The notes under the pieces: generated by a model
What the model saw: only the letters and a program-made list of their open reading frames with translations
What the model was told of the DNA's origin: nothing
Database searches by the model: none
Shown: positions 1,362 through 44,489 of the stretch, piece by piece
Layout: each line of letters opens with the position of its first letter
Numbering within the stretch: the first letter of the stretch is position 1
Origin: Phycisphaera mikurensis
GTDB taxonomy: Bacteria; Planctomycetota; Phycisphaerae; UBA1845
Length of the DNA: 44,489 bases
Direction: 5' to 3'
Assembly: GCA_005240095.1 (NCBI GenBank)
Contig: SBAX01000414.1
Span: 1-44,489, forward strand
Position numbers and translations under genes: made by a program

Positions 1362-3626
1362 ATGCGCCATATGGCCCACGCGGTGTGGGATCGTCCTTGG
1401 GTCGCCCTCGCTGTGGCGACCACGCTGACCGCGACCGCCATCGTCCCCACCACTGCCGCGCAAACCACCACCAAGAAGCCTGCCAGTCCTGCACCGGCCG
1501 ACATCGCTGCGGATGCCACGGTGGAGGAGCTGTTCAAGGACTTCATCCACTACGCTCAGCTCGGCATGTACACGGCGTCCAATGCCTACGGCAAGGCGCT
1601 GTTGGCCCATCGGGATTTGGACCCGGTCGTGGTCATGGAGGCGGCGCATCGCGACCCCAAGGCCATAGACACAGTCGTGCTCGTCATAGGGTCCGCGCGG
1701 GACGAGGAGTTTCGCCAAACCGCTGCGCAAGTGATGGAGCTTATCCATCAGGGCGAGTTCAAGCGCCGCCATGATCCGGAGCGCATTGCGGCCAACATCC
1801 GCCTGCTCGGCGGCAATCCACAGCAGGAGGCGATGGCGATCGCTTGGCTCCGCGATGCCGGGGAGTACGCCGTGCCGCCGCTCATCAAGATGCTGCTCAA
1901 TCCGCACGAGCAGGGGCTGCGTGTGCGCATCCTCAATGCCCTTCCGCAGATCGGCAAAGGGGCGGTGAATCCGCTGGTGCTCGCCCTGAACATGAATGAC
2001 GAGAACATCCGTCAGGATGTGATCAGGGCGCTGGGCAAGATCGGCTATCCGCAGGCCATTCCCTACCTGCGCAAGGTGGAGAGCGATCCCAAGGCCCACC
2101 CCGCGACGAAGGATGATGCCAAGACGGCCGTTGCGAGCATTGAGAACACGGTAGGGCGCAGTTTTCCGGGGGCGACCGAGGATTTGTTCTTCGAACTGGC
2201 CGAGCGGTACTTTGATGAGGAGGAGGACGTCCGCGCCGACCCGCGTCTGGATGAGGCCAATGTGTGGTACTGGGACTCGGCCAATCAGGAGCTGAAGGCC
2301 GTGGTCGTGCCGCGGATCATCTTCGGGCAGATCATGGCCATGCGCTGTGCGGAGGAGGCGATTCTCATCCGTTCTGACCATACGGACGCCATAGGTCTCT
2401 GGCTGGCATCCAACGTCCGCCGTGAGGATCGGCTGGGCCTGGACGTGGAGAGCGGGGACCCCACGGAGCCCGGCCAGCAGGATGCGACCCGGCCTGCGGT
2501 CTTTCCGCGAGCCTTGTACTTCTCCCAAGCTGCCGGACCGCGGTATTCCCTGGAGGTGCTCGAGCGCGCCGTCCGCCGACGCGATTCCGCGGTGGCGTTG
2601 GGAGCTATTGCTGCGCTACGCACGACGACAGGTGCGGCGTCGCTGGCTGGAAACGAACTCGCCCAGTGCCTTCGCTTCCCGGACCTGGTAGTTCGGATCA
2701 AGGCGGCGCTCGCGTTGGGGGCGGCCCTTCCGAAGAAGCCGTTTCAGGATGCGCAGTTCGTGGTTCCGACTCTCGCCCAGGCACTGTCGCAGACCGGTCG
2801 CCAGCAGGTGATCGTGGTGGACGCGAATCAGGAGAACGCCAATCGCGTGACTGCCGTGCTGCGGGCCAATGACCGCGACGTGGTGACGGATACCAGCTTC
2901 TTCCGCGCCCTGGAGAAGGCGCGGGCAGAGCTTCAGAGTGTTTCCGGCATCTTTCTGTCTACGGACCTTTCGGAGCCTGATACCAAGGAGGCGCTGGAGC
3001 GGCTGCGCGGGGAGTTTGCCTTCGCCAAGACGCCGGTGGTCCTGCTGGTCAAGCCCGGGCAGTCGGTGATGGCCGAGGACTTATCGCGCAGCGACGGTTT
3101 TACGGAGACCGTGAATGCCGCGGGGGTCGACGCCGCGATCGAGGCGGCGCTGGAGCGCGTCCGTGGTCGTTCGGCGCAGCTTGCCCTGCCCGCGAACGAG
3201 GCCCTGGAACTCGCTCAGCAAGCGGCTGATACGCTGCTGCGTATCGCCGCCGATGGACGCACGGTGTTCGAAGTTGATGCCGCGGCGCTGGCGCTCATCG
3301 CTGTTTTGTCAGGCAGTGATGAGAAGCTGCAGAAGACCTCCGCCGCGGTGCTGGCGCTGATCGGCTCCCCCGCCGCGCAGCGGGCCATCGCCCACGTGGC
3401 CCTGGATGAGAAGACGCCTAAAACCCTTCGTGTAACGGCTTTCGCGTCACTTGCCGATTCCGCCAAGAATCACGGGAACATGCTGGAGGAAGATCACGTG
3501 GCGCGGCTCGTCAAGACGGCGATGGAGGAGGCCGACCTGATCACGCGGACGGCTGCGACCCAGGCCCTCGGCGCGGTCAACGCCGGGAAGGCGGGCGAAA
3601 TCATCAAGACCTACCACGGCGGTTGA
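1362..3626 (+). CDS. Exported HEAT-repeat protein with a receiver-like segment
   Basis: 754 aa; signal peptide ending ...PTTAA-Q; HEAT-like repeats (VRILNALPQIG, IRQDVIRALGKIG, VRIKAALALG); 'QVIVVDANQENANRVTAVL...TPVVLL' resembles a REC fold; GGGAG RBS. Confidence 0.75.
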   Translation: MRHMAHAVWDRPWVALAVATTLTATAIVPTTAAQTTTKKPASPAPADIAADATVEELFKDFIHYAQLGMYTASNAYGKALLAHRDLDPVVVMEAAHRDPKAIDTVVLVIGSARDEEFRQTAAQVMELIHQGEFKRRHDPERIAANIRLLGGNPQQEAMAIAWLRDAGEYAVPPLIKMLLNPHEQGLRVRILNALPQIGKGAVNPLVLALNMNDENIRQDVIRALGKIGYPQAIPYLRKVESDPKAHPATKDDAKTAVASIENTVGRSFPGATEDLFFELAERYFDEEEDVRADPRLDEANVWYWDSANQELKAVVVPRIIFGQIMAMRCAEEAILIRSDHTDAIGLWLASNVRREDRLGLDVESGDPTEPGQQDATRPAVFPRALYFSQAAGPRYSLEVLERAVRRRDSAVALGAIAALRTTTGAASLAGNELAQCLRFPDLVVRIKAALALGAALPKKPFQDAQFVVPTLAQALSQTGRQQVIVVDANQENANRVTAVLRANDRDVVTDTSFFRALEKARAELQSVSGIFLSTDLSEPDTKEALERLRGEFAFAKTPVVLLVKPGQSVMAEDLSRSDGFTETVNAAGVDAAIEAALERVRGRSAQLALPANEALELAQQAADTLLRIAADGRTVFEVDAAALALIAVLSGSDEKLQKTSAAVLALIGSPAAQRAIAHVALDEKTPKTLRVTAFASLADSAKNHGNMLEEDHVARLVKTAMEEADLITRTAATQALGAVNAGKAGEIIKTYHGG

Positions 3627-3669
3627 TCGGACGCACCGTCAAGTCGGCCCAGCACCAGGCTGAGCGCTG

Positions 3670-3695
3670 CGGCTCGGCAGGAGCCTCGCCCTCCC
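3670..3695 (+). repeat. REP-like family A copy between convergent genes
   Basis: CGGCTCGGCAGGAGCCTCGCCCTCCC. Confidence 0.9.
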
Positions 3696-3723
3696 CGCAG
3701 GCCACCGAAGGTCAAAACCCCGG

Positions 3724-4248
3724 CTAGCGGAGTGCCACGAGCTTGGCGGTTTTTTGTTCCAGGCGACGGACGTTGCCGGAGCCTAAGTCCGTGTCTACAA
3801 CGGTGCCCTTACGGTCGATCCAGAGGACGGTGGGTACGGTCTTGTTGGGGATCCCGTAACGGTCACTGACTTCGCCGCCGTTGAGCAGGACGCGCTGCTG
3901 GAACTTGTTCTGGTCGACGTACTGCTGAAGGATCTCCTTGTCCTCGTCCCAGGCGTTGACCGCCAGAACCACGAGGCCGTCCTTCTTGTATTCTTCGACC
4001 ATTCGGCTGAGGTGCGGAGCCTCCGCACGGCAGGGCGGTCAGCTATAGGCGAAGAAGGCGACGATCACGGGCTTGCCGCGAAACTCGCTGAGTCGCACCT
4101 TGGCCCCGTCCAAGGCGGTGAGCTCGAAGTCCGGGGCGGGCTTGTTCTTCGGGTCTGAAGCGAAGCGGCGTCCGGCCGCGTCCGCGCAGCCTGCCAAAGC
4201 CAACACGGCCACCACAATAGAGAGAAACCACACCTTGTGCTGATGCAT
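3724..4248 (-). CDS. TlpA/redoxin-family thiol-disulfide oxidoreductase lipoprotein, probable selenoprotein (UxxC), 174 aa
   Basis: GAGGAG RBS, ATG 4248, lipobox LAGC. PAPDFELTALDG..LSEFRGKPVIVAFFAYS-TGA(4039-4041)-PPCRAEAPHL continues in frame into the 3724..4002 ORF (GLVVLAVN..PTVLWIDRKG). Confidence 0.88.
4012..4028 (-). promoter_or_regulatory. Candidate bacterial SECIS hairpin
   Basis: GUGCGGA-GGC-UCCGCAC, a 7-bp stem with a G-led loop, starting 10 nt after the UGA. Confidence 0.65.
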
Positions 4249-4393
4249 TCTAAGCTCCTCTACGGATGCCGACCGACCGCCGGACGACCCTGGCATGCTA
4301 CCCGGGCGGTAACGGCCGTGCAATTGCCGCCGACGACCTCGCTCTTGTCGGCCGCGTAATTAGAATGAGTCCAAAGGAATACGGGAGAACCCA

Positions 4394-5773
4394 ATGCATA
4401 CGTCCAATAAGCCTCTTAGTGCGGCCACCTGTCTTCTTACTGCGGCGCTCGGTTACCGAACCGCGGCGCAGTTGCCACCCACTCCCGCCGAGCCATCCGC
4501 GGGCGCGAAGCCACAGCTCTACGTCGCCCAGCGTACGCAGGACCTCGGCACGGTGATCGAGGGAGACAAGGCCACGATCACCTGGCGCCTGGAAAACCGC
4601 GGCAGCGCCGACCTGGTCATCGACCGCACGGTGGCCAGTTGCGGCTGCACGGTGGTGCAGCTTGCGGATGCGGAGAAGACCGTTCCGCCGGGCGGATCGC
4701 TGGCGCTGAAAGCGGAGTTCGACAGCACGGCGCGGCGCGATTCGCAGAACAAGAGCGTGACCGTGTTCAGCAATGATCCCGCAGAGCCCCAGCTGCGCCT
4801 GGATTTCAAGGCCAAGGTGGAGATGCTTTTCGACATTCAGCCCGTGGGGATGGTCAATCTCCGGGCGATCCGCCGCGGGCAAGCTGCTCCGCGGGCGGTC
4901 GATGTGTTTCCCGGGCCGGGGCGCAAGGAACTGGTCGTGAGGTCCGTCGAGTTGCCCGAGGACGCCCCGCTGGCGCATCAGGTCGAGCCCTATGAAGACC
5001 AGCACGGCAAGGGGCAACGGATTCGCTTCACGGTCCTGGAAAGCGCTCCCCTGGGGCAGCTGAACGCCGTGGCACGGGTGAAGTTGGCGGTCGATGGGAT
5101 CGATCGCGAACGTGAGATTCCGATCCGCGGCGAGGTCATTGCTGATCTGACGTGGCTGCCTAAAGTGCTGGACGCGACGCGGCAGCCCTCGCTGCCCGGC
5201 AAGCGTCTGGCTCCGATCACGATCTCGTCTCCGGAGAAGCTGCCCTTCAAGATCGTCGAGGCCGGCGCTGGCGGGTTGTTCGAGGTCGCGGTCGCACCTT
5301 CGGGCGGCGAGCCAGCTACGGAATACTCCGTCACGCTGACTCTTCGTGAGGACGCGCCGCCGGGTCCGTTCGGCACGACGCTGCGGGTGTCCACGAGTTC
5401 GCTGGACCAGCCGCTGGTGGAAGTGCCGGTTTTCGGCATCGTCGCGGCGCCGGTTGAGGTGGAGCCCCCGGTGGTCCTGCTGCGCGACGATGGAACGCCC
5501 GCGGGTTCCAGCCGGCGGGTGCGGATGAAAGCAGGGGTGCCTTCCACGGCACTGGATATCTCCTCCATTCGTTGCGACAATCCAGCGGTGACCGTTGCCG
5601 TGGATGAGACCGCCAGCCGCAAGTACCAGCACATTCGCTTCCTTGACGTGCGCTTGAGCGGCAAGGCCGATCCCGGGCGGCACACGGCGACGCTGCGGGT
5701 CACTACCGGCGTGAGGGGCGCGGAACAACTGGAGATTCCGGTGATTGTGGAGTCGGACAAGAAACCAGGTTAG
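4394..5773 (+). CDS. Exported DUF1573-type (Ig-like) domain protein
   Basis: Signal-like N-terminus; 'DLGTVIEG..LENRGSADLVI..ASCGCT..VPPGG..KSVTVFSNDP' is the DUF1573-type pattern, followed by further beta-sandwich-like repeats. Confidence 0.8.
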   Translation: MHTSNKPLSAATCLLTAALGYRTAAQLPPTPAEPSAGAKPQLYVAQRTQDLGTVIEGDKATITWRLENRGSADLVIDRTVASCGCTVVQLADAEKTVPPGGSLALKAEFDSTARRDSQNKSVTVFSNDPAEPQLRLDFKAKVEMLFDIQPVGMVNLRAIRRGQAAPRAVDVFPGPGRKELVVRSVELPEDAPLAHQVEPYEDQHGKGQRIRFTVLESAPLGQLNAVARVKLAVDGIDREREIPIRGEVIADLTWLPKVLDATRQPSLPGKRLAPITISSPEKLPFKIVEAGAGGLFEVAVAPSGGEPATEYSVTLTLREDAPPGPFGTTLRVSTSSLDQPLVEVPVFGIVAAPVEVEPPVVLLRDDGTPAGSSRRVRMKAGVPSTALDISSIRCDNPAVTVAVDETASRKYQHIRFLDVRLSGKADPGRHTATLRVTTGVRGAEQLEIPVIVESDKKPG

Positions 5774-44337: not shown

Positions 44338-44460
44338 CGAAATGCCCTTTCCTTCAGTCCGCACCGCCGCGTACAACCGCGGGTGCCGGGTCGAGATGCT
44401 ACCCCAAAGCCGCCTGTCGCTAAAGCCACGAGGCGTATGAACCTGTCAGTTGTCGAATGG

Positions 44461-44486
44461 GGGAGGGCGAGGCTCCTGCCGAGCCG
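44461..44486 (-). repeat. REP-like family A copy
   Basis: GGGAGGGCGAGGCTCCTGCCGAGCCG. Confidence 0.9.
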
Positions 44487-44489
44487 CCC

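Follow-up and report, generated by a model that had tools for sequence, protein, structure and literature searches.

An in-frame TGA in a thioredoxin-fold redoxin gene of a Phycisphaera contig, and the case for an exported selenoprotein in Phycisphaerae

Contig SBAX01000414.1 of the Phycisphaera mikurensis assembly GCA_005240095.1, analysed over its positions 1 to 44,489 (44,489 nucleotides, hereafter the window), carries a redoxin gene that standard gene calling breaks in two at an in-frame TGA. Judged by comparison with its relatives, this locus is almost certainly a genuine selenoprotein gene, in which the TGA would be read as selenocysteine (Sec, U). We consider highly probable, if somewhat less secure, the fuller statement that its product is an exported, lipid-anchored thiol-disulfide oxidoreductase of ResA/TlpA-like type, in which Sec is the attacking residue of the motif U70-P-P-C73.

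From the ATG at 4248 to the TAG at 3726..3724 on the minus strand, the frame is interrupted only once, by the TGA at 4041..4039 (codon 70), in the peptide context KPVIVAFFAYS-U-PPC-RAEAPHLS. Translation under table 11 yields two open reading frames (ORFs) in the same frame, 4039..4323(-) and 3724..4002(-), and public protein sets contain pieces that end just before U or start just after it, called 'hypothetical protein' where they are named. An initial annotation, made from the sequence of the window, had proposed that these two ORFs are one frame broken by a single TGA and that standard annotation would split the gene. Both proposals are borne out, as are two features that it had read nearby, namely a LAGC lipobox at the N-terminus and a 7-bp hairpin with a G-led loop 10 nt past the TGA. 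The N-terminus is MHQHKVWFLSIVVAVLALAGC, a hydrophobic stretch with the lipobox L-A-G-C21 (residues 18-21) at its end; the 10 nt are 4038..4029 and the loop is GGC. It had also placed the UGA at the first Cys of the CxxC motif of TlpA and thioredoxin, and this assignment stands too: U70 falls on the CxxC of ResA, and the homologues without TGA carry Cys there.

The protein obtained by reading through the TGA is a recognizable redoxin along its whole domain. It matches PF00578 (AhpC-TSA) at 2e-25 with 89.6 bits (cut-off 26) and PF08534 (Redoxin) at 3e-20 with 72.9 bits (cut-off 26.6). The best solved relatives are ResA chains (4nmu at 6.2e-17, the Bacillus subtilis ResA entries at about 1e-11), and U70 aligns to the first Cys of CxxC in the solved ResA structures. 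The product has in common with ResA the pattern C-x-P-C-x-x-E-x-P and the P-T loop that bears the cis-Pro, to which V-P139-T corresponds; the cis conformation of Pro139 is presumed from this alignment. As printed in the alignment of 46 database homologues, C70, C73 and P139 are invariant; one of the database Cys forms, P0002, has 74% identity. An AlphaFold2 model built with these 46 homologues has a mean predicted local distance difference test (pLDDT) score of 91.1 and places residue 70 of U70-P-P-C73 immediately before a helix spanning 71-86. Searched with Foldseek, it matches 4nmu with E 1.3e-14, a TM score of 0.92 (normalised to the target) and a root-mean-square deviation of 1.4 A, followed after ResA by DsbE/CcmG, StoA and the pneumococcal lipoprotein thioredoxins Etrx1/2. 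Model and structural search agree on a thioredoxin-like fold with the ResA-type insertion.

The strongest evidence comes from relatives. We searched 61 related genomes, 56 of which gave a match at E <= 1e-10, and extracted and aligned the 30 best loci. The TGA stands at exactly the same alignment column in 25 of these 30 loci, at protein identities of 40-71%, and the other five have TGC or TGT there. The TGA loci come from numerous genera of the same family, with two more families of the order also represented; a further record titled Phycisphaera (L061) is also a Cys form. Near-identical orthologues occur in metagenome-assembled genomes (MAGs) labelled Phycisphaerae, Phycisphaera sp. or Planctomycetota. 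Orthologues stay full length with both halves intact, and the whole domain is modelled confidently, with no sign of a decaying 3' half. In these genomes selA was detected in 52 of the 61; of the 25 with a verified TGA form, 23 have it, and seven of the nine genomes without it show no TGA-containing match.

The putative Sec insertion sequence (SECIS) is a hairpin made of an arm GUGCGGA (4028..4022), a loop GGC (4021..4019) and an arm UCCGCAC (4018..4012) on the minus strand. The constraints quoted from PMC13188914 for bacterial SECIS elements (bSECIS) are an apical loop of 3-9 nt with G in its first two positions, an upper stem of 4-16 bp, a distance of 16-37 nt from UGA to loop, and a minimum free energy <= -7.5 kcal/mol. 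The redoxin hairpin satisfies every one of them, with a loop of 3 nt (GG), a stem of 7 bp, a spacing of 17 nt and, folded in isolation, -9.9 kcal/mol. An Rfam scan of 3600..4400 at loose thresholds returned no SECIS family, and a single chance-level match (E 9.1). By itself, the hairpin is not beyond chance; its significance derives from the comparison with relatives, in which the TGA column and the hairpin are found together in many genera.

This comparison shows that the hairpin is conserved at synonymous sites, and only in the TGA forms. Over the 25 Sec sequences pairing is kept in 98.3% of 175 cells, against 27-71% in slid controls, and none of 500 shuffles matches the observed pairing or covariation score. 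Double changes are seen in one of the seven pairs and in three of the 25 sequences (C-G to U-A twice, to A-U once). A change of A75 from GCG to GTG (Val) or GAG (Glu) is accompanied by A or T in the third position of the Pro78 codon, which restores the pair (L040, L042, L036), and in variants of residue 74 (Cys, Leu, Ser) or residue 77 (Phe, Ser, Val) the paired third base T is retained. Constraints on RNA and protein therefore overlap in codons 74-79, where paired third bases are kept though residues change. Codon choice points the same way. Among the Sec forms with the peptide RAEAPH, 14 of 15 encode it as CGT GCG GAG GCT CCG CAC, while in the window CGT makes up 8.7% of Arg codons (73/841) and GCT 10.4% of Ala codons (131/1264), and the six codons jointly have an expectation of about 6e-4 in any one sequence. 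Three Cys forms with the identical peptide (L041, L044, L061) use other codons and have no hairpin.

The machinery that Sec insertion would need, which the initial annotation had left to be sought in the genome, is present in the same assembly. A tRNA-Sec on contig C204 scores 70.3 bits (cut-off 47) and is called tRNA-SeC with anticodon tca by ARAGORN; selA is over its cut-off with 572.9 bits, and selB lies directly 5' of it on one contig (C109:6046-9329), likewise over its cut-off with 313.9 bits, or 352.2 when neighbouring in-frame segments are included. The fourth component, selD, is over its cut-off with 377.9 bits (C411:20917-21837, L018). TGA terminates six of the 17 long ORFs in the window and is therefore otherwise an ordinary stop here.

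Several points weigh against the selenoprotein reading or thin the evidence for it. Sec decoding itself is a step that we infer. The 61-nt fold at the hairpin has a z score of -1.67, with 15 of 200 shuffles folding as well, and a loose bSECIS-like filter admits 50 in-frame TGA sites in the window, whose G+C content is 64%; among these 50, a redox motif and a domain continuing across the TGA are seen only at the redoxin, the other 49 having been considered without a Pfam run. Covariation is thin, being confined to the one pair and the three sequences given above, and the relatives are kin, so that the shuffle control overstates the signal and the counts overstate independence. One Sec form (L026, G029:C43) has a degenerate hairpin, with the codons CGC GCG GAA GCA CCG CAC and about four central pairs left, perhaps as a weakened SECIS or some other kind of structure, and another (L034) lacks the outer pair. 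In two of the genomes that carry the TGA, G004 (98% complete) and G007 (90%), the search returned no selA; a gap in the assembly could account for this, or a real mismatch. The Logan contigs X1 and X2, from runs labelled groundwater metagenome, match 3667..4400 with no differing letter, but they may come from the source sample and hence not be independent evidence. A contig from an RNA library of a relative (X20, 259 nt, matching 4012..4150 with 19 differing letters, 16 of them listed) was rejected as a witness: it reaches the TGA just some 30 nt from its end, and is evidence neither that the TGA is retained nor that the gene is transcribed.

Other points bear on the fuller statement about family, export and partners. 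The product is under the NCBIfam cut-offs for ResA (NF002854, 81.9 against 170 bits), TlpA (NF047696, 46.1 against 230), StoA (NF041202, 55.6 against 210) and DsbE (TIGR00385, 38.7 against 123), and also under that of the WAxxUGC_long model (NF041054, 49.4 against 300); for this reason we call it ResA/TlpA-like and file it under no named equivalog. In its own assembly, which comprises 488 contigs and is 89.6% complete, lspA and DsbD_TM were not found and lgt scores 96.2 bits, under the cut-off of 118.9, so that both the anchor and the electron donor rest on relatives. Of 26 related genomes, 22 have LspA, among them all 14 of high quality and three of the four others in the genus. For DsbD_TM the count is 37 of 41 relatives, mostly within ORFs of about 800-900 codons (for example G004:C13:1222-1842), which points to a large DsbD-like fusion protein in the order. 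A lipid anchor and a DsbD/CcdA-type donor are plausible at the level of the lineage. Finally, there is no conserved gene neighbourhood that would indicate a substrate.

What else could the locus be? The reading closest to ours accepts the selenoprotein and questions its chemistry: the protein could be mainly a peroxidase of the Prx or GPx type, with Sec as the peroxidatic residue, instead of a disulfide reductase for protein substrates. The top Pfam match is after all AhpC/TSA (2e-25), a weak GSHPx match exists (4e-05), Bcp and Prx structures appear further down the Foldseek list, and several homologues are named 'peroxiredoxin' by JGI. We nevertheless regard this as unlikely. The U/C-x-x-C sits at the position of the thioredoxin CxxC, with the cis-Pro conserved, and not in the T-x-x-C context of Prx; the nearest solved sequences and folds are ResA, DsbE, StoA and Etrx; and the NCBIfam Prx models score 16-33 bits, against 81.9 for ResA.

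The two remaining explanations deny Sec altogether. If the TGA were a true stop, the locus would be a pseudogene, a pair of small genes or the product of an assembly or sequencing error. Table 11 indeed gives two ORFs, public protein sets contain such fragments and the hairpin alone is within chance. Yet the same column holds TGA in 25 of the 30 loci, in different genera whose proteins, at 40-71% identity, keep both halves intact; the break lies midway along a domain that is modelled confidently as one thioredoxin fold; the hairpin 3' of it is conserved only in the TGA forms; and the Sec machinery is there. As far as comparative sequence data can tell, a true stop is already contradicted, and we give it very little credence. 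Even less credible is a genome-wide code in which TGA stands for a different amino acid, such as the Trp or Gly of codes 4 and 25. Such a code would leave the frame open, but it would have to accommodate the long ORFs of the window that end in TGA, the homologues without TGA, which carry Cys and not Trp or Gly at the column, and a dedicated tRNA-Sec with selA and selB. We therefore return to a selenoprotein with a thioredoxin-type active site.

A plausible course of events for this selenoprotein can be outlined. Translation would start at ATG 4248; at UGA 70, SelB with Sec-tRNA(Sec) would bind the hairpin 10 nt 3' and Sec would be inserted, a step for which signal, machinery and conservation are in hand and decoding is presumed. 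The N-terminal lipobox would then direct export and lipidation of Cys21, leaving the domain outside the cytoplasmic membrane. There, Sec70 would attack a substrate disulfide and Cys73 would resolve the selenenylsulfide, with re-reduction by a membrane electron carrier of DsbD/CcdA type, by analogy with ResA, TlpA and Etrx. The strict lipobox pattern is found in 20 of the 30 orthologue loci, and by eye [GAS]-C follows a hydrophobic stretch in 28 of them, the exceptions being L042 and L048. The initial annotation had spoken of a membrane-anchored extracytoplasmic seleno-oxidoreductase. The selenoprotein redoxin in that description is upheld; the anchoring, which is predicted from the lipobox, and the chemistry keep the conditional form that we give them here. 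The features of the gene are collected in Table 1.

Table 1. Features of the redoxin gene in the window, all on the minus strand.
Feature	Coordinates	Strand	Remarks
Complete gene, 174 codons and TAG stop	3724..4248	-	ResA/TlpA-like thioredoxin-fold redoxin, one UGA presumably read through
Shine-Dalgarno-like GAGGAG	4255..4260	-	6 nt 5' of ATG 4248; read from the sequence, putative function
Predicted lipoprotein signal peptide, residues 1-20, with lipobox L18-A19-G20-C21	4186..4248	-	C21 is the predicted lipidated residue
UGA codon 70, probably read as Sec (U of U-P-P-C)	4039..4041	-	Orthologue TGA column; alignment to ResA CxxC
Cys73, putative resolving Cys of UxxC	4030..4032	-	Invariant across 46 aligned homologues
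Putative SECIS hairpin GUGCGGA-GGC-UCCGCAC	4012..4028	-	Within codons R74-A-E-A-P-H79, 10 nt past UGA
Pro139, cis-Pro position of the thioredoxin fold (V-P-T)	3832..3834	-	Invariant in the 46-sequence alignment, aligned with ResA P-T

The gene stands alone between a divergent DUF1573 gene and a convergent HEAT-repeat gene. The divergent neighbour, at 4394-5773 (+), encodes a 459-aa DUF1573/HYDIN-like protein with Ig domains. Each of the two recurs beside the redoxin of a single congener, L022 for the HEAT-repeat gene and L025 for the DUF1573 gene, and no neighbour cluster occurs in more than three of 31 loci, overlapping frames of the redoxin itself aside. No ccs or res genes lie near the redoxin. 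Because no neighbours are conserved, the substrate cannot be read from context; by analogy, it could be apocytochrome c, a copper-site protein or methionine sulfoxide reductase. A scan for promoters and terminators gave nothing beyond shuffle expectation, and the intergenic sequence 3' of the gene has an unremarkable fold (z = +1.42). Just 3' of the gene, at 3669-3696, lies a G+C-rich element of about 28 nt with a short internal hairpin, found again at 44460-44487 on the minus strand. Genome-wide, it has at least 41 matches among 182 first-look candidates, many of them 97-100% identical, and in the contigs of the sample its depth reaches 460-540. It looks like a dispersed repeat of the repetitive extragenic palindromic (REP) kind.

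Further in-frame TGAs were encountered in the assembly. The selD gene has one of its own, at the usual SCAG-U-AGK site and followed by a hairpin. A deiodinase-like ORF of thioredoxin fold at C364:782-958 (L054) reads VLVFGSLT-U-PPFRRQ across an in-frame TGA, and its hairpin, 10 nt past the TGA with a 7-bp stem and a GGC loop, has the architecture of the redoxin SECIS; this is probably another split selenoprotein. A Prx-like ORF at C305:2550-2843 (L055), a candidate UxxC selenoprotein of the 'Prx-like' kind, has its in-frame TGA in the context LAFYRGHW-U-RYCNAEL, and a 6-bp hairpin follows after 11 nt.

Our results do not change what is known of Sec decoding or of the kinds of proteins that use Sec, and the selenoprotein itself will not surprise a specialist. 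They do mean that gene callers turn the redoxin gene, and no fewer than 24 of its orthologues in related genomes, each into a pair of 'hypothetical' fragments, and that proper counting adds a presumably exported selenoprotein to the Phycisphaerae of groundwater and sediment MAGs, a lineage whose selenium use is undiscussed in the literature searched. The locus also offers an unusually clean overlap of RNA and protein coding. To us the most interesting point is that the SECIS overlaps a conserved peptide, which may ease switching between Sec and Cys in this redoxin family. Sec and Cys forms are interleaved on the tree, where five label changes are needed and at least three are forced by well-supported branches; 13 of the 29 inner branches are open, and because of this poor resolution we claim neither a root nor a direction for the changes. 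R, E and P of C-R-A-E-A-P-H are kept in Sec and Cys forms alike, which we attribute to protein function. It is tempting to see this motif as 'codon-palindromic', such that about five synonymous changes together with TGC<->TGA would make or dissolve a SECIS and turn the site into a hot-spot of repeated Cys<->Sec exchange in Phycisphaerae. We put this forward tentatively, at less than even confidence. If true, the redoxin would illustrate how a protein motif can, in nature, be pre-adapted to carry the signal for its own recoding.

How does the redoxin compare with known systems? Its closest solved counterpart is the ResA of Bacillus (4nmu, 1st9, 1su9), which acts in cytochrome c maturation and is extracytoplasmic and membrane-tethered, as the redoxin is predicted to be; it is the best match in both sequence and structure. 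The redoxin differs from it in having only about 30% identity, in carrying Sec in place of Cys and in its anchor, a lipobox here and a transmembrane segment in Bacillus ResA. The pneumococcal Etrx1 and Etrx2 (4hqs, 4hqz, 2yp6), which are among the sequence and fold matches, are TlpA-like lipoprotein thioredoxins placed outside the membrane, as is predicted for the redoxin. Methionine sulfoxide reductase is the partner of Etrx1 and Etrx2, whereas the redoxin has no such neighbour; moreover, those are Cys enzymes, at 24-25% identity. The ResA-like WAxxUGC selenoproteins (NF041054) have Sec at the first position of CxxC as the redoxin does, but their model spans 354 positions against 174 residues, and the redoxin motif is S-U-P-P-C.

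Among catalogued selenoproteins, the nearest by description is the 'Thiol-disulfide isomerase-like protein' family, listed in Table 1 of PMC13188914 under cd02966 (TlpA-like) with a UxxC motif and one Sec, and credited there to Zhang, Fomenko & Gladyshev 2005. The likeness lies in that description, in the UxxC motif and TlpA-like fold only as far as cd02966 is concerned; to it can be added, for the family as portrayed in these sources, a thioredoxin fold of TlpA/AhpC-TSA type, a bSECIS immediately 3' and Cys homologues that are far commoner. An earlier survey includes 'Thiol:disulfide interchange protein' and 'Prx-like thiol:disulfide oxidoreductase' among 25 bacterial selenoprotein families in its Table 1, and remarks that conversions of Cys to Sec mostly concern thiol oxidoreductases with UxxC, CxxU or TxxU motifs (PMC1794560). 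That 2006 survey counts three thiol:disulfide interchange selenoproteins, which its species tables place in Syntrophus and Geobacter (PMC1794560). As far as those tables go, the redoxin is unlike these members in belonging to a Phycisphaerae clade, in being a predicted lipoprotein and in having its hairpin embedded in the conserved peptide RAEAPH. For other Planctomycetes, Sec machinery and selenoproteins have been reported (PMC4807772), and in the literature searched we found no description of Phycisphaerae selenoproteins. UxxC selenoproteins of TlpA-like type are thus already catalogued in the tables cited, and the redoxin adds one more.

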